Assembly (NCBI GenBank): GCA_018897555.1 | Contig: JAHIKK010000112.1 | Span: 12,275-76,274, forward strand | DNA length: 64,000 nt | Reading direction: 5' to 3' | Source of the DNA: Candidatus Omnitrophota bacterium | GTDB taxonomy: Bacteria > Omnitrophota > Gorgyraeia > Gygaellales > Profunditerraquicolaceae | Shown here: positions 3,874 to 63,822 of the stretch, piece by piece | How the letters are laid out: each line of letters opens with the position of its first letter | Numbering within the stretch: the stretch's first letter is position 1 | Program-made: the position numbers and the translations under genes | The notes under the pieces: generated by a model | What the model was told of the DNA's origin: nothing | What the model saw: the letters and a program-made list of their open reading frames with translations, nothing else | Databases searched by the model: none

Positions 3874-5082
3874 TTAGAGATCCAGATGATGCCCTAGTTT
3901 CTCTTTTTTTGTTTTAAGGTATTTATAATTCTGAGCGTTAGGCTCAATCTCTAAGGGTACCCGCTGTGAAACTCCTAAGCCATAACCTTCCAGGCCGACA
4001 ATCTTGCGCGGATTATTCGTTAACAGCCTGATCTGCTTAATCCCTAAATCTACAAGAATCTGGGCGCCAATACCGTAATCGCGTAAATCCGCCTTATGCC
4101 CCAATGCTTCATTGGCCTCTACCGTATCCATTCCGTTATCCTGAAGGTTATACGCGCGCAGTTTCTCGACTAATCCGATGCCGCGGCCTTCTTGATGCAT
4201 ATAAAGGATCACGCCTTTTTTCTCCAGAGCAATCATCTGCATCGCCTTTTCTAATTGCCTTCCGCAGTCACAGCGCAATGAGCCAAAGACATCCCCGGTT
4301 AAACACTCTGAATGTACGCGGACCAATATTGATTCATCTAACCAGCTACCCATACACAAAGCAATGTGTGTCTGGCCATTGGTCTGATCGCGATAAACAA
4401 TTAACTTAAACTCACCAAATTTCGTGGGTAATTTGGTCTCTACAATTGCCTCCACCAGTTTCTCGCTCCTGCGGCGATATTCAATCAGGCTGGCAATCGT
4501 ACAAATCTTTAAAGTATGCTTCTTGGCAAACTCCCGAAGCTGCGGCAGGCGAGCCATAGTCCCGTCATCATTCATAATCTCGCAAATTACTCCGGCCGGA
4601 TAAAGCCCGGCCAGCCGCATTAAATCCAAGCTGGCTTCCGTATGCCCTGCCCTGACCAAGACTCCGCCGCGGCGCGAACGCAAAGGAAAAATGTGCCCGG
4701 GACGCACCAGGTCTTCCGGCTTGGTTTGCGCATTAATTAAAACTTCAATGGTTTTAGCCCGGTCGCCAGCAGAAATACCCGTACTCACCCCTAAAGCGGC
4801 ATCCACAGAAATCATCCAAGCGGTCTTAAAAGGATCCTCATTACCGGCTTGCAAAGTATTCTTAAGCATAGGATCAAGCTCCAATAAACGCAGCCGCTCC
4901 TCCTCCATGGGAACACAAATCAGTCCCCGCCCAAATTTAGCCATAAAATTAATGTCTGCGGATTTAACGCTGGAAGCGGCCATCACTAAATCCCCCTCGT
5001 TCTCCCGGTCTTCATCGTCAACGACAATGACCATTAATCCGGCTTTTAAATCTTCTAAAATTTCTGTGATGGAATTAAACAT
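3874..5082 (-). CDS. ribBA: Bifunctional 3,4-dihydroxy-2-butanone-4-phosphate synthase / GTP cyclohydrolase II
   Basis: [20 protein letters not shown] (DHBP synthase) plus C-terminal GTP cyclohydrolase II (HSECLTGD...CDCG). Start set at the MFNSITEIL Met, because the longer track ORF would run into the riboswitch terminator; RBS ggag lies upstream of it. Confidence 0.9.
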
Positions 5083-5089
5083 AAGTCTC

Positions 5090-5123
5090 CATAAAAAAAA
5101 TAAACCCGAAAACAATCTTCGGG
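5090..5123 (-). terminator. Rho-independent terminator/attenuator (FMN riboswitch expression platform)
   Basis: Minus-strand cccgaagattgttttcggg hairpin followed by tttatttttttt, directly upstream of the ribBA RBS. Confidence 0.8.
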
Positions 5124-5138
5124 CGTATTAATGTCAAT

Positions 5139-5272
5139 CTTTTCTCATCTGGACTTTCGCCGTAAAAAAAACGGCACCATCGGCCCTGGAATCTCACCAG
5201 ATCTGTCCGCCACAAAATCCATGGCTGACTCGCGGGCTAAACCGCCGGTAAGGAATTGCACCTTGCCCTAAA
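5139..5272 (-). promoter_or_regulatory. FMN riboswitch (RFN element) controlling the rib operon
   Basis: Minus-strand sequence GGGCAAGGTGCAATTCCTTACCGGCGGTTTAGCCCGCGAG ... GGTGAGATTCCAGGGCCGATGGTGCC ... GAAAGTCCAGATGAGAAAAG matches the conserved FMN aptamer core (GGGCAGGGTGAAATTCCCGACCGGCGGTA..AGCCCGCGAGC ... GGTGGATTCAG..GCCGACAGT.AAAGTCTGGATGGGAGAAG). Confidence 0.9.
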
Positions 5273-5342
5273 GATTAATTGTTATTATCTTAACAGAAAA
5301 ACGGGGCTTGTCAATACAATTAAAAACAACTATAATACATCT

Positions 5343-18324: not shown

Positions 18325-18347
18325 AAATAAAGGGGACGGTTTATTTT
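18325..18347 (-). repeat. Member of the dispersed 'aaaatagaaacggtccc' repeat family (single copy, variant aaataaaggggacggtttatttt)
   Basis: Nearly identical to the left arm at 55261-55284; overlaps the stop codon of the helicase gene. Confidence 0.5.
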
Positions 18348-22333: not shown

Positions 22334-22570
22334 TCAATAATTAAAAAGATCCTTTAATACATACTGTTTACCTGAAACCTTATTCAAAGCATTAAGCAGC
22401 CGGTATTGTATTTTCAAATTCAAACGCCTGCCCCTGGCCGCACGCGAAACCATTTTATGCGTAATCTGCTCAGTGGAATTACTTACCAGATCATGAGACT
22501 TAAACCCATGTTCAGCCATGATTCTGGCAATCGGCTGCTCCCCAAGGTCTCGTTGGATTTCGTTATTCAT
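22334..22570 (-). CDS. Hypothetical 78-aa protein
   Basis: ORF whose ATG overlaps the TGA of the upstream Bro-N gene (ATGA) and lies inside repeat copy R1. Confidence 0.4.
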   Translation of the reverse strand: MNNEIQRDLGEQPIARIMAEHGFKSHDLVSNSTEQITHKMVSRAARGRRLNLKIQYRLLNALNKVSGKQYVLKDLFNY

Positions 22571-23208
22571 GATAAAAATAGAAACGGTCCCATTATTCCT
22601 TCACGTTTTAACCGTTTTATCTTCATATATTGACTAGGCGTAACTCCAAAGGTAGCTTTGGAGATTTCTGCTGTTAAAATTTCGTAATCCTTTTTCTCTT
22701 GTGCCCCGCGTTTCTGCCATTCATCCGTAAGCTCTTCACGAATAGCAATACCCCGCATTCTTTTCTCAATCCAATCATCAGGATAACCTTTAAGCTTGTA
22801 AAGCATCCTTGTTCTTTTTGTAGCAAGCTCAGGATTTTCAATCTCCTGAATACGTTCATAGCCAACTTTCGCTAACCAACGTTTAAATAGCTCAGCTTTA
22901 GGAGATGGCACTGACTGAACAATACGAAAAATACCTTCTGTATTAGCGCAATCGGTCTCGTATTTTTTGCCGTCAGACGCTTCTAATTTGAGTCCGTGAC
23001 AAAATGTCACGACCTCGCTACCTTCCTCTCTTAATCTTTGTTTTAATTTACGCCAATAAGCGCCCGCATCAATACTGTCCGTTAATACTCCGCACACATC
23101 CGCAACGGAAAACCACCACTCATTCTTATGAATGGTTTTTCGTACCTTCTTACCTTTAAATATCGCTATCTTTGTCTCCATACTCCCCTCCTTTTCCTGC
23201 GTTATCAT
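22567..23208 (-). CDS. Bro-N domain protein (DinD / phage antirepressor-like)
   Basis: KIAIFKGKKVRKTIHKNEWWFSVADVCGVL matches the BRO-N fold; its last 8 codons (MGPFLFLS*) are encoded by the repeat element itself. Confidence 0.6.
   Translation of the reverse strand: MITQEKEGSMETKIAIFKGKKVRKTIHKNEWWFSVADVCGVLTDSIDAGAYWRKLKQRLREEGSEVVTFCHGLKLEASDGKKYETDCANTEGIFRIVQSVPSPKAELFKRWLAKVGYERIQEIENPELATKRTRMLYKLKGYPDDWIEKRMRGIAIREELTDEWQKRGAQEKKDYEILTAEISKATFGVTPSQYMKIKRLKREGIMGPFLFLS
22571..22599 (+). repeat. Repeat family copy R1 (gataaaaatagaaacggtcccattattcc)
   Basis: 24/24 identity with 23483-23506; same family as 55304-55327 and 57065-57090. Confidence 0.7.
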
Positions 23209-23221
23209 TACTTTCTCCTTA

Positions 23222-23461
23222 CTATAACTGACGCAGAAAAGGCCAAAATCTAACAGAAATTATCGTTACCGTAGCTAAAACAACTAAAAATATCCCCATT
23301 ATTTTATTATTGCGAATTTCTTTTTGCATAGAGATAGGTTCAATCCGCCAATTGATCCTTTCATAGAATTTCTTTTGGATTTCAATAGTCAGTTCTGGCT
23401 TAAAGAAAACGAATAGACCAACTATTATGCCAATCACAGAAATTAAAATTGGGGCAAGCAT
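23222..23461 (-). CDS. Small membrane protein (2 TM helices)
   Basis: 79 aa, two hydrophobic helices, GAGGAG RBS upstream. Confidence 0.4.
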   Translation of the reverse strand: MLAPILISVIGIIVGLFVFFKPELTIEIQKKFYERINWRIEPISMQKEIRNNKIMGIFLVVLATVTIISVRFWPFLRQL

Positions 23462-23482: not shown

Positions 23483-23519
23483 GATAAAAATAGAAACGGT
23501 CCCATTGTTTCATTATTTC
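23483..23519 (+). repeat. Repeat family copy R2 (gataaaaatagaaacggtcccattgtttcattatttc); direct repeat of R1
   Basis: Direct-orientation copy; R1/R2 bracket the Bro-N gene and the 79-aa membrane protein gene. Confidence 0.7.
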
Positions 23520-23588
23520 GAAGTATCGCTCTTTTCTTATGCCCAAAAAGTGCCCAATTTATTCAATAATTTTCCTTAATGTATATTA

Positions 23589-23655
23589 GCGGGTGACGAT
23601 GGCTGGATTCGAGGACGCTTCAGGCGGCCGAGAAACAGGCATCGGCAGGACCCGC
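23589..23655 (+). other. GC-rich structured element A (gcgggtgac...ggcaggacccgc closing stem), candidate small RNA or structured repeat
   Basis: ~67 nt at >60% GC in an AT-rich intergenic region; 6-bp closing helix gcgggt/acccgc plus internal cgatg/catcg pairing; 23666-23695 then forms atcct-tc-gggcc-tac-ggccc-tc-aggat. Confidence 0.3.
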
Positions 23656-23703
23656 ATAAACCGAGATCCTTCGGGCCTACGGCCCTCAGGATGACAGTAT
23701 ATC

Positions 23704-52249: not shown

Positions 52250-54039
<1,790 letters not shown>

Positions 54040-54075
54040 TTATAATGAACTGTGGTGAAACTCATACGCGTCTGT

Positions 54076-54218
54076 CTTGTCTTGTTCCTCCGCGCACCGC
54101 TTGAGCCGCCCCAGCGTGGCGGCTCTACGCTCGAGCAGAATCTTGCGCTCCCCGCCAAGAATCGTGGCGGGACCGTGCCCGCGCAAGATTCTTAACGTGC
54201 GCTCCGGAACAAGCCAAG
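54076..54218. repeat. ~145-nt GC-rich rod-like palindromic element (MITE-like or 6S-like structured RNA)
   Basis: Closing arms cttgtcttgttcctccgcgcac / gtgcgctccggaacaagccaag (about 19 of 22 positions complementary) enclosing nested hairpins gagccgcc-N7-ggcggctc, agaatcttgcgc...gcgcaagattct, cccgcca-N7-tggcggg; the 60-aa track ORF inside (54040-54222) is probably not coding. Confidence 0.4.
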
Positions 54219-54310
54219 CCATCCGCTAAATCAAGAGTGTCCCCTTTTAAAACGTCCCCCGATTCCATACTGTTCTCCGCCAAAGCAACTATTAATTATT
54301 TTTATCGATC

Positions 54311-55102
54311 TTATTTAATTCTAGAAAAATCAATCGGTATCCGTTTCTCCTCGTTTTCATAAATAACCACAATTTCATACTTTGACGATAAATTAATATC
54401 ACTGTAATTGTATAAATGGCTAGGTTTCTGCACTGATAAACCGACAACGTCACTGCTATCTATCTTCAAATCTTTGCGATATTGTTCAGCGATCTTGTTT
54501 GCCATCTCCATTGTTTGCTTCACGACAGCATTAGCGGTTTCCTGCCAGTTGTTCTGGACACCCAACAGATGAGAGTAAGAATATGGGCTTTTGTCATTGT
54601 ATAATGGGTTCGATTCAGCTTCTTGAACTTTGATGCCATCTTTGAGCAAAACAAAATTTACTTTACTCTGAAATGCATATAATCCAGCGCCAACTGGGTT
54701 AACCTGCTCTACTGTCTCAATGTGAAATGTCGGCAGCGTTGCAAGAAAGTTAACGTAGTCCATATCTATTGCTTCATAATTCTTTGTTTGCTTGGCTGCG
54801 TAATCAGCAATCAAATAATAATTAGAGCAAATCAATATGTAGACTTGACGTATACCACCCAAGAAATTAGTAATGTTTTTTGAGTATATGAAAGCGTAAT
54901 TGATAACATCTGGCTTTAATCTGTTCTTCTTACCAAAGTCAATAGCTTCCTGTATCTGCTCTGGCGATAAACGAGCGATTAAGCCATTCTTATAATTCTT
55001 TAACGTTGCAGGACGCTGGCCTCTAATATATGTTTCCCTCATAGAAAAACCGCAGCCACTTACAAAAATGCTCAAGGTCACAATAAAAATAAGTCTCCTC
55101 AT
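54311..55102 (-). CDS. Hypothetical lipoprotein
   Basis: Signal peptide with lipobox VSGC; 263 aa, no recognised family. Confidence 0.45.
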   Translation of the reverse strand: MRRLIFIVTLSIFVSGCGFSMRETYIRGQRPATLKNYKNGLIARLSPEQIQEAIDFGKKNRLKPDVINYAFIYSKNITNFLGGIRQVYILICSNYYLIADYAAKQTKNYEAIDMDYVNFLATLPTFHIETVEQVNPVGAGLYAFQSKVNFVLLKDGIKVQEAESNPLYNDKSPYSYSHLLGVQNNWQETANAVVKQTMEMANKIAEQYRKDLKIDSSDVVGLSVQKPSHLYNYSDINLSSKYEIVVIYENEEKRIPIDFSRIK

Positions 55103-55260
55103 TTCTCCCTCTCTACAATTTAGTAGACCTCATTTAACACAGAATGAGGTTAGAATACCTTGCTCTACGCAAAAACTATAATAAAAAATTATCATTCTTG
55201 TAAATCTAAGTTCTGAAAACTTTTCTCCAAGTATCATAATTCCCAATTTTCCTCTTCTGA

Positions 55261-55327
55261 AAATAAAGAGACCGTTTCTATTTTTCTTGGGCCCGATTCT
55301 AGTAAAATAGAAACGGTCCCTTTATTC
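55261..55327. repeat. Inverted pair of the 'aaaatagaaacggtccc' repeat family forming a ~17-bp hairpin; probable bidirectional terminator
   Basis: aaataaagagaccgtttctatttt-[19-nt loop]-aaaatagaaacggtccctttattc; on the minus strand followed by a T-rich tract; sits 3' of the PH-domain protein gene. Confidence 0.6.
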
Positions 55328-55334
55328 ATTACTA

Positions 55335-55874
55335 TTATTTGTGCAATATATCAGAAATCTTTAGGTGGACGTCTTTAGGATTCTTTATGTCAATCCAAGT
55401 TAATTCTTTTACTGGTCCTCCAGCAGTATCAAATAGAATATTCCCGATTTTAGTGTTATACCATAAAACATTCACTTCGATATTCTGCACTTTGCTCAAG
55501 GGGCATTCTTTGTATGTCTTACCAATCATACCTCTTTGGGTAATAATTCTTTTATTAGTAATAGCATATATTGTGTTCTTCCATTGAGAGCGATTGATGA
55601 AAAAAGTTATAACCGTAATAACCCAAAACGGGGTCCAGAATAGGGAAATAATAGTAAATAATGATGTTGCGCCAAAAAAAGAACCCATAAATGGCCTTAC
55701 TTCAAAATACAATTTTTCTTCTGGAAGTAATGTGCCAAGGGACAATATTTTTGGAGTTATATAATGAAATTCTTTATGGATTTCCTTGGCTGAACCTTCA
55801 AGAGAACTTCCACAATGTTTACACTTAATGGCCTCATCCTGTATTTCTTCTGCGCAAAAAGGACATTTTTTCAT
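55335..55874 (-). CDS. Zinc-ribbon + membrane-anchored bacterial PH (bPH_2/YdbT-like) domain protein
   Basis: N-terminal CPFC...CKHC zinc ribbon, TM hairpin, C-terminal PH-like domain. Confidence 0.5.
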   Translation of the reverse strand: MKKCPFCAEEIQDEAIKCKHCGSSLEGSAKEIHKEFHYITPKILSLGTLLPEEKLYFEVRPFMGSFFGATSLFTIISLFWTPFWVITVITFFINRSQWKNTIYAITNKRIITQRGMIGKTYKECPLSKVQNIEVNVLWYNTKIGNILFDTAGGPVKELTWIDIKNPKDVHLKISDILHK

Positions 55875-55940
55875 TTCATATTCTCCTTTCTTAAATAATA
55901 TTAGAAAACCTCGCTCTACACCAATTAAATGTACTGCTTA

Positions 55941-56027
55941 GCGGGTGGCTTGGGTGTTTTCGACGCGCGTCAGCGCTAGAAAATACCCAAGACAGCCTGC
56001 CCGCCAATCTTTATGGCGGGGACCCGC
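55941..56027. other. GC-rich structured element B (gcgggtggc...ggcggggacccgc), related to element A; contains a cccgcc-aatctttat-ggcggg hairpin
   Basis: Same gcgggtgRc / gRcRgg(g)acccgc closing motif as 23589-23655; nested 13-bp stem cttgggtgttttc/gaaaatacccaag around palindrome gacgcgcgtc; lies in the queA 3' UTR and upstream of the PH-protein gene. Confidence 0.35.
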
Positions 56028-57019
56028 TAAATGATCAGCATTGCATCACCGTAGCTATAAAATCTATACTTCTTATCCACTGCTTCTTGATATGCCTTGG
56101 TCATTAAATCTTTGCCGCCAAATGCACAAACCAGCATGAACAGAGTAGTCATCGGAAGATGAAAATTGGTCAGCAGGCAATCTACTGATGCGAATTTGTA
56201 ACCCGGATAGATAAATAAATCTGTATTGCCTTCTTTACGGCCAGAGGCATAAGTTTCCAAAGCCCTCAGGCTGGTGGTGCCCACAGCAATAATGCGGCCT
56301 TTATCCGCTTTTACTTTAGCCAGCGCGGCAATAGTTGCATCAGGAACTAAGAAATATTCCGGCTCCATTTTGTGCTCAGTGATATTTTCGCATTTAACCG
56401 GACGGAAAGTGCCTAACCCCACATGTAATGTAACATAACCCAGATTAACGCCAACTGCCTGGATTTGTTTAAGCGATTCTGGCGTAAAATGCAGGCCGGC
56501 AGTAGGCGCAGCAAGCGCCCCTTCATTTTTTGCGTAAACCGTCTGATAATAAACTGTATCTAAATCCTCAGGATCACGTTTAATATAAGGCGGCAGAGGA
56601 ACAATCCCAAAGTTATAAATCATATCCGCATCCGTCTGCTTGAAACTAATCTGCCCCCGGCTGCTTAAAATTCCGGTAACCTTGCCGGAAGCAAAAATAA
56701 TCTTTTCACCGACTTTTGTGCGGCTGGGCTGAACCAGGCAGGAAAAAGTTGTGCCGTTAATCCGGCGGGTGAGTAAAATTTCAACTCTTCCGCCGGTTAT
56801 TTTATTCCCCATTAAACGACAGTGCAAAACCTTAGTATCATTAAGCACCAACAAATCATTTTTTCTAAAAAATCCGGCAATCTCCTTAAATACTTCGTGG
56901 CTGATCGTGCCGGTTTTTCGATTGACGATTAAAAGGCGGGCCTGGCCTCTATCTTCCAAAGGATATTGAGCAATCAGTTCCTTAGGCAGCGGATAATCAA
57001 ATTCAGTAAGTTTTAGCAT
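56027..57019 (-). CDS. queA: S-adenosylmethionine:tRNA ribosyltransferase-isomerase
   Basis: MLKLTEFDYPLPKELIAQYP canonical QueA N-terminus; the track's TTG-extended start lies inside the upstream hairpin repeat and is rejected. Confidence 0.9.
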   Translation of the reverse strand: MLKLTEFDYPLPKELIAQYPLEDRGQARLLIVNRKTGTISHEVFKEIAGFFRKNDLLVLNDTKVLHCRLMGNKITGGRVEILLTRRINGTTFSCLVQPSRTKVGEKIIFASGKVTGILSSRGQISFKQTDADMIYNFGIVPLPPYIKRDPEDLDTVYYQTVYAKNEGALAAPTAGLHFTPESLKQIQAVGVNLGYVTLHVGLGTFRPVKCENITEHKMEPEYFLVPDATIAALAKVKADKGRIIAVGTTSLRALETYASGRKEGNTDLFIYPGYKFASVDCLLTNFHLPMTTLFMLVCAFGGKDLMTKAYQEAVDKKYRFYSYGDAMLII

Positions 57020-57030
57020 ATTTAAAACTA

Positions 57031-57090
57031 GGGGACGGTTCTGTTTTTCCGAATACAATTTTAGAAAAACAGAACCGTCCCCATTATTTA
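57031..57090. repeat. Inverted pair of the repeat family (ggggacggttctgttttt / aaaaacagaaccgtcccc-attattta) forming an 18-bp hairpin between the GH gene and queA
   Basis: Perfect 18-bp stem with 16-nt loop; tail attattt matches family consensus. Confidence 0.6.
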
Positions 57091-58266
57091 ATTCAGGTAG
57101 CCGATAACTTGATCGGTTAAATCGTCAATGGAATAGAGGACTACGCCGTCGGGAGCCAGATCATTAATCAAACGAAGTTGATTAGAAAACAGGTCCGGAT
57201 TGTCTTTCATTAAGAACACCCCCATACCGACATAAATTTTCCCTTTGCCGCGATGGCCCAGGCTGCTCTTTACCACTTCTTTAGCAAACTGATTATCCTT
57301 AGTATAAGACATCAATACCACATAATCAATAATCCCCTCTTCTAACCAACCCGACCAATCCTGGAAGGCGTTGCTATAGGCGCGCTCAGTAACCGGAATA
57401 ACCGCGCAGGAGACCGCTAAACCGGGGGATTTAACTTTAACTAAACTGGTGATTTTACGCAATAAATCCGTAACCTGCTGGCGTTTCCAGTTATCCCAGG
57501 CCAAATACTCATCTTCATTGTTCAGCGTATCTAAAGCATTAATCCCGGTTTTATCGCGAAATCTCTCTATATTCATCAGCCCATAACCATAGGTTAAACC
57601 GAATTTATTAAACCTTGAACCCGGGACAAACGGAATAGGCGATGGATAACGCAGATAATCTAAGTGTATCCCGCTAAATAACGGATAACGGTTAATAATT
57701 TCATTAATAATCGTGAGTATGTACGTTTCTACCCTGGTGTCCCCCGGCTCTAAAAATATCATATCTTCTCTTAAATAATATTTATCCAACTCCGTGCTGG
57801 TAGAAATCTTCGAAGGCCTTTGATACTGATCGCGGGTAAGAATGGAACTGCCGTACTTATTCAGAATATCCGCTTTTTCGTTTTTCCCCAATCCTAAGAT
57901 GTTCACCCAGGCAAAAACTTTAATATTGTTCTGCCCGGCCTCTCTAAGCAATAAATCCAGCGTATCCAACCCGGCGGAGGCAACCATCTGGTCATATTTT
58001 GTTTTGTCAGCAATCCTCGAATCATAATAAGCATTACCCGACTGAAAAATCTGCAGATAAATCTCATTAATTTTAGCCTTATTACATTGCGCGATCAAAT
58101 TATGCACACCGGCTTCAGAATAAAGCATTTTTTTAGCGGAAAACACCGACACCCAAATACCTCGAGGAACAGCCGGCTTAACCGGAATCGGCTGATCTTC
58201 GGCTAAGGCCAATCTAAAGCTGAATAAATAACAGATTAGTAATAGAGTTAATGTTTTATGCTTCAT
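57088..58266 (-). CDS. Secreted glycoside-hydrolase-like protein (GHL10/DUF187-type TIM barrel)
   Basis: Signal peptide, conserved GIWVSVF...NEIYLQIF block. Confidence 0.5.
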   Translation of the reverse strand: MKHKTLTLLLICYLFSFRLALAEDQPIPVKPAVPRGIWVSVFSAKKMLYSEAGVHNLIAQCNKAKINEIYLQIFQSGNAYYDSRIADKTKYDQMVASAGLDTLDLLLREAGQNNIKVFAWVNILGLGKNEKADILNKYGSSILTRDQYQRPSKISTSTELDKYYLREDMIFLEPGDTRVETYILTIINEIINRYPLFSGIHLDYLRYPSPIPFVPGSRFNKFGLTYGYGLMNIERFRDKTGINALDTLNNEDEYLAWDNWKRQQVTDLLRKITSLVKVKSPGLAVSCAVIPVTERAYSNAFQDWSGWLEEGIIDYVVLMSYTKDNQFAKEVVKSSLGHRGKGKIYVGMGVFLMKDNPDLFSNQLRLINDLAPDGVVLYSIDDLTDQVIGYLN

Positions 58267-61598: not shown

Positions 61599-63785
61599 CT
61601 ATAACTTCCTCGCTATCTTCTCTATATCATAAGCTTCAATAATATCGCCTTCGACTAATTGATCAAACCCGCTAACTGCAATACCACACTCAAACCCCTC
61701 ACCAACCTCGCGCACATCATCCTTAAAACGTTTAAGGCTGGCAAGCTTGCCTTCAAAAGCAACCGCACCATTGCGCATCACGGTAATCATGCAGCTACGG
61801 TTAATCTTCCCCTTGGTTACAAAACATCCGGCAATGATACCGGAACTGGAAAGCTTAAACATCTTCCTGACTTCGACCCTGCCTAAAAATACTTTCTTTA
61901 ATTTTGGATCAAGCATACCCTCAACCGCAGCTTTTATGTCATTAGCCAGCTCATAAATAATATTATATATTTTTACATCTATGCCTTCTTTGGAGATCAA
62001 CTCCTTAGCCGGCTCATCAGCAGAAACATTAAATCCCAAAAGCAACGCATCAGAAGCTACCGCTAAAATTACATCGGAAGTATTGATATTTCCCGCCCCC
62101 AGATGGATGATATTAATTTTTATTTCGGAAACATTCAACTTCTCCAAAGTATCTTTAATTGCCTCCAGCGATCCCTGGACATCCGCCTTAATAATTAAAT
62201 TTAGTTCCTTGATTTTACCGGCGGCAATCTGCAGATGCAACTCTTCCAAGCTTACCCTCTTTACCTCTTTAACCTGCTGAAGCTTTTCTTTTTCCACGCG
62301 GGCGGCAATTAAACTCTTAGCCTGCCTTTCATCTTCAATCACAAAAAACTGGCCCCCTACCTGCGGAATTCCGCTTATCCCCAAAATCTCTACCGGAGTT
62401 GCCGGGCCGACAGAAGTTACTCCCTGCCCCCGGTCATTGAGCATCGCCCTGACTTTTCCATATAAATTACCTACGATTATATTCTGGTTAAGATGTAATG
62501 TGCCGTTCTGCACAAGCAATGTCGCTACCGGCCCCCTGCCTTTAGCCATCCGGGCTTCCACGACTACTCCATAGGCCAGGCGGTCAGGATTGGCTTTTAA
62601 TTCCATAATTTCGGCTTGCAACAAAATCATCTCCAGTAAGCTGTCTATTCCCGCGCCGGTCTTAGCAGAGACCGGGACAGTAATCGTTTTACCGCCCCAA
62701 TCCTCAGGATTTAATCCGGCTGCAGCTAACTGTTTTTTAACCGTGTCTATATTTGCCTGCGCTTTATCTATTTTATTAATCGCCACGATGATCGTTACTC
62801 CGGCAGCCCGCGCATGGTCGATGGCTTCCTGAGTTTGCGACATAATTCCGTCATCAGCAGCTACGACTAACACCACAATATCGGTAATCCGGGCGCCGCG
62901 AGCACGCATCGCGGTAAATGCTTCATGGCCGGGTGTATCTAAAAAGGTAATCTCCCCCTGCGGAAGGCTGACCCGGTAAGCACCGATATGTTGAGTAATC
63001 CCTCCATGTTCTCCTTCTGTAACTTTAGTTTTACGTATGGCATCCAAAAGAGAGGTCTTACCATGATCAACATGCCCCATAAAGGTTACTATCGGTGAAC
63101 GGCTCTTTTGCTCTTGCGGCTTATCTATTTTTTGATGCGCCTGCAAAGCCGTTTCTTCGGCATTCAAAGCTTTCTTAACTCCAAAATTATATTTTAAACA
63201 TAATTTATTTAAAGTAGCCTCATCTAAAGACTGATTAATCCCGATCATTACCCCCATACCCATAAGATGCTTAATCAGAACCGAAGACTTCTCCTGTAAT
63301 TTTATGGATAAATCTTTAACCGTAATCGGAAGCTCCAGTTCAATCTCTTTTTCCGGGCCGGCTTCGGCCTTAACCTCAGGGATAAATTCTGATTTCACTG
63401 GAGGAGAAACTTCGACTTTTGCCTCTGGCTTATGGATAGGCTTAACTGCCACTTTTACTTCAACCTTGAGCTCAGGTTTTATTACCGGTTTAACTACCGC
63501 TTTCACTTCAACCTTGGCTTCAGGTTTTATTACCGGTTTAACTGCCATTTTCACTTCAACCCTAGGCTCAGATTTTGCTACCGGTTTAAGCATAGACTTA
63601 AATACCGGCTTAATTTTTTCCTTAACCTTGTTTACTGCCAATTTGAGCTTAAGCGGCTTAGCTAGAGGCTTAAACTTAACCGCCTCTTGCGCTTTAGCAA
63701 CCGGCTTCTTAGTTTTTACCTCCACTTTAACCTTAGGCTTAACTATTTTTTTTACTACTTTTTTTTCTTTTTTTATTTTTAGCAT
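61599..63785 (-). CDS. infB: Translation initiation factor IF-2
   Basis: G domain ([12 protein letters not shown]), IF-2 domains; lysine-rich repetitive N-terminus; start set at MLKIKK downstream of the GC hairpin. Confidence 0.95.
63440..63585 (-). repeat. In-frame ~39-nt tandem repeats inside the infB N-terminal region
   Basis: Encodes 3-4 copies of VKPVIKPE[AL]KVEVK; DNA repeats ggtttaactRccRctttcacttcaaccttggctYcaggtttt. Confidence 0.6.
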
Positions 63786-63801
63786 ATTTTTCTCTTTCTC
63801 G

Positions 63802-63822
63802 CCCGCCAATCTTTGTGGCGGG
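63802..63822 (-). other. GC hairpin cccgcc-aatctttgt-ggcggg between nusA stop and infB start
   Basis: Near-identical to the hairpins at 55999-56020 and 54151-54171. Confidence 0.5.

Follow-up and report, generated by a model that had tools for sequence, protein, structure and literature searches.

The DNA analysed here is a stretch of 64,000 nucleotides (the window) from contig JAHIKK010000112.1 of a Candidatus Omnitrophota bacterium (assembly GCA_018897555.1), in which nearly all genes lie on the minus strand according to the list of open reading frames (ORFs) and a short motif, here called M, recurs. M is 24–26 nt long with sharp boundaries, AAAAATAGAAMCGKYCCCWTTATT, has the consensus (A)AAAATAGAA[C/A]CG[T/G][C/T]CCC[T/A]TTATT, and is present in seven copies at five sites, or approximately one site per 13 kb. 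Strict pattern matching retrieved the copies at 22575–22598(+), 23487–23510(+), 55261–55284(−), and 55304–55327(+), and 100 shuffles of the window yielded no matches. A looser search for the core, together with a profile scan, added copies at 57023–57049(−) and 57064–57090(+) and a 17-nt half copy at 18325–18341(−); E-values of the window copies in the profile scan ranged from 2e-7 to 4.5e-4. The sites comprise two inverted pairs (55260–55327 and 57022–57091), two full single copies, and one degenerate half. Two dialects of the core are present, with GAAACGGTCCC in four copies and GAACCGTCCCC in two copies and the half copy. All five sites and both inverted pairs named in a preliminary description of this DNA were recovered by these searches.

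The REPIN-like inverted pair at 57022–57091 carries core GAACCGTCCCC and lies between the stop of a GHL10 gene (57088) and the ATG of queA (57019). Its 28-nt arms (57022–57049 and 57064–57091) are separated by a 14-nt spacer and share a perfect run of ~19–20 bp; on the plus strand, ~57023–57049 is the reverse complement of M, rc(M), and 57064–57090 is M. The second REPIN-like pair, at 55260–55327, carries core GAAACGGTCCC, with one arm reading GAAACGGTCTC, and its upstream neighbor is a zinc-ribbon/bacterial-PH gene (55335–55874, minus strand). Here, the 26-nt arms (55262–55287 and 55301–55326) are 92% complementary; perfect Watson–Crick pairing extends over 15 bp at most, and 24 consecutive pairs form in RNA when one G-U pair is counted. 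The 17–18 bp perfect stems given in the preliminary description are thus approximate only. Predicted RNA folds of the sense (minus) strand reached −36.6 kcal/mol (z −7.5) for 57022–57091 and −30.8 kcal/mol (z −5.6) for 55260–55327, and the corresponding DNA folds −22.8 and −18 kcal/mol. The location at gene 3' ends that had been described also holds, as the elements begin −1 nt and 8 nt past the respective upstream stops, whereas the gaps proved to be co-directional and not convergent because nearly all genes lie on the minus strand.

A role in transcription termination is plausible for the hairpin at 55260–55327, where the strong stem is followed on the sense strand by the tail UUUAUUUU and, downstream, by a promoter-like TTTACA-18-TATAGT site for the next gene (55204–55175). 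For the hairpin at 57022–57091, whose tail reads UAGUUUUAAAU, such a role appears doubtful because its end is 11 nt from the queA ATG, too close for a promoter to fit in between. Intrinsic terminators are expected to combine a G+C-rich stem of 5–14 bp, a loop of 3–8 nt, and a U-tract; a consensus terminator scan did not list the window hairpins because their stems, at 19–24 bp, are far longer and their loops measure 13–14 nt. The hairpin also bears on the annotation of queA. A TTG-extended queA ORF (56027–57058, 343 aa) starts inside the 14-nt loop and had been regarded as an artifact, correctly so: the ORF is real, but the gene start is spurious, with the public gene call and ~120 homologs all giving a 330-aa protein from the ATG at 57019. 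The M hairpin therefore accounts for the spurious N-terminal extension of queA in the annotation.

The remaining copies are unpaired. The full copy at 22574–22598 (plus strand; profile E-value 1.1e-5), which reads as rc(M) on the gene-sense minus strand, overlaps the last codons (GIMGPFLFLS*) of a Bro-N ORF (22567–23208, minus strand) and ends 3 nt before the ATG of a 78-aa ORF (22334–22570). It encodes the last ten Bro-N codons, which overlap the ATG of the next ORF (ATGA), and so accounts for the odd C-terminus of the Bro-N gene; it forms no local hairpin (RNA fold z −0.8). The full copy at 23486–23511 (plus strand; profile E-value 4.2e-5; family D3) is a direct repeat of the former at a distance of 912 bp and lies 24 nt upstream of the ATG of a 79-aa membrane ORF (23222–23461). 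The two direct copies bracket the Bro-N gene and the 79-aa membrane ORF. The Bro-N domain family is often tied to phages or mobile elements. Finally, the degenerate half copy AACCGTCCCCTTTATTT at 18325–18341 (minus strand; profile E-value 4.5e-4) abuts by one base the TAA stop (18341–18343) of a UvrD/PD-(D/E)XK helicase gene and, as read from the sequence, immediately precedes a TTGACA-17-TATAGT promoter-like site for an acyltransferase gene.

Beyond the window, a degenerate 23-mer covering all gapless window copies was scanned over one genome per species and returned more than 110 blocks in at least 54 assemblies; the matches listed were mostly labeled Omnitrophota or came from third-party bins labeled "Planctomycetales." A motif-selected set of 110 loci plus the window was drawn from the matches listed, to which all counts on this set are limited, and copies were accepted with at most four mismatches; L002 and L003, which are 100% identical to the window, were left out as comparisons. 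This set contains at least 281 M copies. The 8-mer CCGTCCCC occurs 214 times in it, with ~90% of the occurrences inside the same 24–26 nt motif, and anchoring on the 8-nt core gave (A)AAAATAGAACCGTCCCCTTTATT(T), with no conservation outside the motif. Three main cores were distinguished, GAACCGTCCCC, GAAACGTCCCC, and GAAACGGTCCC, the copies having been retrieved with a pattern in which most core positions are fixed. A single core is strongly favored in each genome, as illustrated by JAPLLY (44 of 51 copies) and CAWDSS (18 of 18), and the outer end of the motif is often partially duplicated. No match was found among the 2.9 million viral contigs of IMG/VR, and a viral origin was accordingly rejected.

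The architecture of the family is uniform. All 84 simple inverted pairs in the motif-selected set follow the order rc(M)-loop-M and never the opposite one; the layout is AATAAAGGGGACGG...TTTTT-loop-AAAAA...CCGTCCCCTTTATT, with a modal loop of 17–19 nt. Crude ORF calls placed 133 of 168 sites (79%) in intergenic DNA. In co-directional contexts, the median distance from the stop codon to the hairpin is ~5 nt, and the distance to the next start is broad. The loops are informative as well: those of CAWDSS are homologous within the genome (AACGTCTCCTAATCAGCAG), and a loop type CCGTCG...TTG recurs between genomes, which indicates that whole hairpins, and not arms alone, have been copied. Taken alone, an arm is unstructured, folding at 0 kcal/mol and no better than shuffles. 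Single copies in co-directional contexts carry rc(M) on the sense strand in 23 cases and M in 7, a bias that might reflect targeting relative to replication.

The preliminary description had suggested looking for a cognate REP-associated tyrosine transposase (RAYT; REP, repetitive extragenic palindrome) elsewhere in the genome. Neither the window nor the 2 kb adjoining it contains one; in related genomes, however, RAYT genes were found between rc(M) and M. The ORFs of the motif-selected loci were clustered, and one resulting family comprises eight proteins in eight assemblies, all of which match Pfam Y1_Tnp. Their best NCBIfam model is NF047646 (REP-associated tyrosine transposase; 56–86 bits, three of seven above the curated cut-off), whereas the IS200 model gave only 20–28 bits, and the RAYT alignments show no variation in the HUH and conserved Tyr columns. 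In four of the eight loci (L086, L038, L105, and L053), rc(M) stands just upstream of the RAYT gene, and in the first three, M lies at or adjoins the RAYT stop codon, the motif's TAG being the stop codon itself in L086 and L038; L053 is cut by the locus end. The RAYT of L024 is split, probably by a frameshift, and an M copy lies upstream of its N-terminal fragment. The same flanks surround closely homologous RAYTs on three large Syntrophales contigs, from a Smithellaceae member (1.3 Mb), a Syntrophus sp. (436 kb), and a third contig of 4.8 Mb, where a TTGACA −35 box follows the upstream repeat, and on L201–L204. The L201/L202 RAYT is labeled Candidatus Omnitrophica by NCBI and the other contigs are unlabeled; according to an exact-sequence look-up, L201 and L202 encode an identical RAYT protein at the same site, between SMC/TraB and a riboflavin operon.

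A reverse test that made no use of the motif gave the same picture. Among 80 metagenome loci fetched by similarity to the RAYT alignment, rc(M) was present within 300 nt upstream of the gene in 57 of 74 testable cases and M just downstream in 56 of 71, with both flanks in 48, even though these RAYTs are only 36–64% identical to the query. Two 21-kb control loci chosen via queA contained no motif hits. The copies flanking RAYTs carry GAACCGTCCCC, GAAACGTCCCC, or GAAGCGTCCCC, and the free hairpins match the two ends of a RAYT unit in polarity. Together, the flanks at the RAYT genes and the reverse test identify the motif as the cognate repeat of this RAYT clade. The contigs that bear RAYTs are mostly just 1–3 kb long. 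As a separate observation, a leader ...TTAGATTTCCCCTCC...AGAGTAGAAGGAGGGA... is conserved upstream of the RAYT starts in L038, L046, and L047; it could pair across the ribosome-binding site, which suggests translational control of the transposase.

Homologs of queA provided a graded series of syntenic relatives in which the hairpin between GHL10 and queA could be followed. L118, whose queA is 94% identical, has the same hairpin with 65 of 68 bases identical and both arms unchanged, while four-fold sites are ~80% identical to those of the window in the two flanking genes and 89–94% identical in three other nearby genes. The hairpin is missing from L117 (queA 97% identical), L119 (90%), and L120 (88%), all of which keep a degenerate ...CTGTCCCTAATTATTTA... 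stretch before the queA ATG. This pattern of presence and absence at one site fits gain or loss, and insertion and decay are indistinguishable in it. The neighboring interval between queA and tgt (54034–56026), which in the window includes the hairpin at 55260–55327, contains different genes in every relative examined: in the window, these are the bacterial-PH gene and a 263-aa lipoprotein-like ORF, and elsewhere unrelated ORFs, flavodoxin genes, or TPR genes. In L117, it contains three further M copies and duplicated fragments of the queA 3' end. The interval looks like a rearrangement-prone hot spot.

We consider it highly likely that M is the repeat recognized by a RAYT clade and that its inverted pairs are REPIN-like non-autonomous elements. 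The REP/MITE-like mobile element (MITE, miniature inverted-repeat transposable element) envisaged in the preliminary description is in agreement with M flanking RAYTs in inverted orientation, with a single pair architecture, and with a hairpin that is present or absent among close relatives. Published REPINs (REP doublets forming hairpins) are built from extragenic repeats of ~20 nt arranged as inverted doublets in one dominant configuration and spacing that fold as a hairpin; their A- or T-run flanks are thought to reflect transcription attenuation, single copies are regarded as remnants, and RAYTs are flanked by the repeats (PMC3337134; bioRxiv 10.1101/2021.07.10.451892). The M family shows the over-represented, mostly extragenic repeat, with seven copies in the window and none in shuffles and 133 of 168 sites intergenic; the inverted doublets of fixed configuration and spacing that form hairpins, in all 84 pairs; and RAYTs flanked by inverted repeats in the motif-selected loci, the Syntrophales contigs, L201–L204, and the reverse test. 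The palindromic REP core with a GTAG or GTGG head was not found, the arm folding at 0 kcal/mol and containing no GTAG.

In the mechanism that these features point to, the RAYTs, as HUH/Y1 single-strand DNA transposases, would recognize M, and an rc(M)-loop-M unit of ~65–70 nt overall would be the non-autonomous, REPIN-like element. The hairpin looks like the two ends of a RAYT unit joined by a short spacer because the RAYT gene sits between the same inverted copies. By analogy with IS200/IS605 and with the REP/RAYT systems of E. coli and Pseudomonas, the doublet would fold as a hairpin in single-stranded DNA and be cut and copied by the RAYT in trans, and we infer that the window copies were mobilized in this manner. 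Single and half copies would then be decayed or rearranged remnants. Once in an mRNA, a copy may act as a two-way terminator, an attenuator, or a 3'-end stabilizer; a two-way role is possible because the stem is flanked by AATAAA/TTTATT and lies within a few bases of stops.

Several observations weigh against this interpretation. The window's main dialect, GAAACGGTCCC, was found beside no RAYT examined, and the lack of a RAYT gene in the window and the adjoining 2 kb extends to L001. Several of the RAYTs score under the curated NCBIfam cut-off, and a phmmer search with the L086 RAYT against solved structures returned no sequence match. The single arm lacks self-complementarity and GTAG, unlike classical REPs. 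Copy density is modest, with zero to one site per ~20 kb in the relatives, and doublet arms are not measurably better conserved than single copies, with mean mismatches of 1.29 and 1.37 in a sample bounded at four mismatches by the search threshold.

A further proposal, which we advance tentatively and regard as somewhat less probable than its opposite, is that all of this represents one repeat/RAYT lineage. Its near-invariant 12-nt core (AGAACCGTCCCC and two close dialects) would have been retained across several phyla while the transposase diverged to ~40% identity, with hairpins expanding mainly in Omnitrophota. Such a lineage would span Omnitrophota and Syntrophales/Desulfobacterota and probably Aminicenantes, Elusimicrobia, and Nitrospirota. 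Because the arm is non-palindromic and without GTAG, the RAYT clade would need a mode of substrate recognition unlike that of E. coli TnpA-REP; it might read only the doublet hairpin, or linear single- or double-stranded DNA. Gene flow tied to the host-dependent lifestyle proposed for Omnitrophota could account for the occurrence in several phyla.

Alternatively, the RAYT and its flanking repeats might together form an IS200-like insertion sequence, autonomous and able to spread from genome to genome and across phyla; in that case, the hairpins would be ordinary short-lived MITEs derived from its ends and not vertically inherited, host-tolerated REPIN/RAYT elements. The Y1_Tnp fold is shared with IS200/IS605, and the non-autonomous derivatives resemble joined ends of a transposase unit. 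Horizontal movement would also account for the same core flanking RAYTs in Omnitrophota, in Syntrophales, and in metagenome-assembled genomes (MAGs) labeled Elusimicrobia and Atribacterota; RAYT contigs are mostly very short, as expected if repeats break assembly, L115 lies in a transposase-crowded region, and several repeat pairs at L140 and L154 suggest neighboring copies. However, IS200/IS605 ends are different subterminal hairpins, whereas M elements have 24-nt inverted repeats, and the NCBIfam RayT model (56–86 bits) outscores the IS200 model (20–28 bits). The identical RAYT at the same site in L201 and L202 would fit a fixed single-copy gene, at least one RAYT having the same chromosomal position in these two assemblies. 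Furthermore, the window and L118 still share an orthologous hairpin although their four-fold sites have diverged by ~20%, and the motif is absent from the 2.9 million viral contigs. An IS200-like element with transient MITEs is therefore, in our judgment, unlikely.

It is less probable still, to the point of being a slender chance, that the hairpins are simply intrinsic terminators or mRNA 3' stabilizers under selection for expression, their likeness resulting from function and not from mobility. The strong stems (−30.8 and −36.6 kcal/mol) with a G+C-rich base, the A-run and T-run flanks, the position a few bases past stops, and the promoter-like site after 55260–55327 would all suit such a role. 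Nevertheless, selection on structure alone allows compensatory drift, yet ~24 nt are kept across at least 54 assemblies, with only three main core dialects among the copies that the core-fixing pattern retrieved. Single copies without a hairpin are common, eight pairs lie between divergent genes by crude ORF calls, and many others stand 5–20 nt before the next start in apparent operons. Moreover, M flanks RAYT genes on both sides, and the loops of 13–20 nt exceed those typical of intrinsic terminators.

That M is instead a DNA uptake sequence, similar to the Neisseria DUS or the Pasteurellaceae (Haemophilus) USS, preferred by a competence receptor and with pairs doubling as terminators, is highly improbable: as in DUS/USS, a short motif conserved in many species has genome dialects and occurs singly and in inverted pairs after genes, sometimes within coding ends, but against their very high genome density of ~1 per kb, in coding and non-coding DNA alike and without a tie to a transposase, it is much sparser (~1 site per 13 kb in the window, and fewer still or none at all in the sampled relatives), is strongly intergenic, is copied as whole hairpins including the loops, and is tied to a cognate transposase gene, with the same core and transposase in unrelated phyla.

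Other candidates were rejected. Integron attC sites have the layout R''-L''...L'-R', adjoin an integron integrase gene, and contain a GTTRRRY core, which M lacks; moreover, the arms of M pair perfectly without extrahelical bases. CRISPR was dismissed on the irregular spacing of same-strand copies (33–729 bp in L077); at this locus, which has seven same-strand copies, the tyrosine recombinase gene adjoining them is convergent and lies next to a tRNA-like sequence, and neither attC nor CRISPR was retained. As read from the sequence, the motif contains no correctly spaced sigma-70 −35 element and no sigma-54 GG/GC, so a promoter was likewise set aside; single rc(M) copies often lie 3–30 nt before a start codon, and the TTGACA −35 of the RAYT loci lies just to the inner side of the repeat, outside the motif. 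No known RNA family matched at its gathering threshold; the hairpins drew only microRNA-like matches below threshold, attributable to chance. The L077 region itself (contig CAZRVK010000003.1, 900–3300, plus strand) encodes ~7 paralogous ORFs of 56–68 aa with a common N-terminus M.YKIKK.WKQP..I.LVR... and Cys-rich tails. These ORFs, most with a single rc(M) ahead of them, resemble peptide precursors. The tyrosine recombinase gene and the tRNA-like sequence adjoin this array.

Comparison with characterized systems places the M family close to the REPIN/RAYT elements of Pseudomonas fluorescens SBW25 and Enterobacteria, which likewise consist of a mostly extragenic repeat of ~20–25 nt forming inverted doublets (Bertels & Rainey 2011; PMC3116915, PMC3337134). 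The likeness to the SBW25 REPINs extends to a near-perfect hairpin, A- and T-run flanks, remnant-like single copies, a RAYT between inverted repeats, and loops that are less conserved than the arms. In contrast to those REPINs, the M arm has neither a palindromic core nor a GTAG or GTGG head, and the element measures ~65–70 nt compared with ~90–110 nt. The M core is also kept across RAYTs that are 36–64% identical to the query and ~40% identical to one another, and in several phyla, whereas published systems stress lineage-specific repeat/RAYT pairs. One study, concerned almost wholly with proteobacteria, mentions RAYTs mainly in gammaproteobacteria and analyzes REPINs in Pseudomonas and Neisseria (bioRxiv 10.1101/2021.07.10.451892). 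The E. coli REP/BIME system (BIME, bacterial interspersed mosaic element) with TnpA-REP (RayT/YafM) shares the HUH/Y1 enzyme, RayT as the best NCBIfam model, and repeats located after genes. In E. coli, REPs after genes stabilize mRNA or attenuate transcription. The E. coli REP is, however, an imperfect palindrome preceded by a GTAG that the enzyme reads, whereas M folds only as a doublet, and the solved structure of TnpA-REP has no sequence-level match to an M-flanked RAYT. Classical GTAG-N-TTTAAA-N-CTAC palindromes were observed in L007, L060, L034, L010, L046, and L052, all from other Omnitrophota MAGs, and are absent from the window; they are sometimes nested in M-hairpin loops or placed beside single M copies. 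Genomes with these palindromes contain RAYTs without M flanks, and the L046 RAYT is flanked by GTAGAC...GTCTAC.

The window also contains features that are distinct from M. Directly after the queA stop lies a GC-rich element of ~95 nt (55932–56034, minus strand) closed by the stem AGCGGGU/ACCCGCU and enclosing two hairpins, of which one is CCCGCCAUAAAGAUUGGCGGG. Its predicted fold reaches −50.1 kcal/mol (z −5.6), no Rfam family matches it, and it is conserved in the closest relative (L117, 9500–9600). Related elements occur at 23583–23666, 54045–54290, and 63801–63822, with a similar one 78 nt from the M copy at 23486, and a small CCCGCC...GGCGGG hairpin recurs between nusA and infB. The element may be a structured RNA or a second repeat family. 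Additionally, an FMN riboswitch (RF00050, 98 bits) is located at 5133–5279 (minus strand), upstream of a 413-aa ORF (3874–5115), and three tandem 48-nt repeats (63409–63589) in the 5' part of the infB (IF-2) coding region probably encode a repetitive N-terminal protein segment.

In the literature searched, the M core sequences are printed only as primers, and nothing links Omnitrophota with uptake sequences, REPINs, or RAYTs. The REPIN-like M family is thus a known kind of element that had not previously been described in Omnitrophota; it is ordinary in kind and notable for its non-palindromic arm, its conservation, and its host in an uncultured phylum. It raises the question of how a RAYT works on a non-palindromic repeat. 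M also provides a 24-nt marker for such DNA in metagenomes, and its density in Omnitrophota, together with the repeat flanks at RAYTs, could help account for breaks between contigs. Among mobile elements that persist for very long periods within bacterial lineages, REPIN/RAYT systems have been studied best, and with the M family their range comes to include syntrophs and an uncultured phylum whose members are ultra-small and probably host-dependent.

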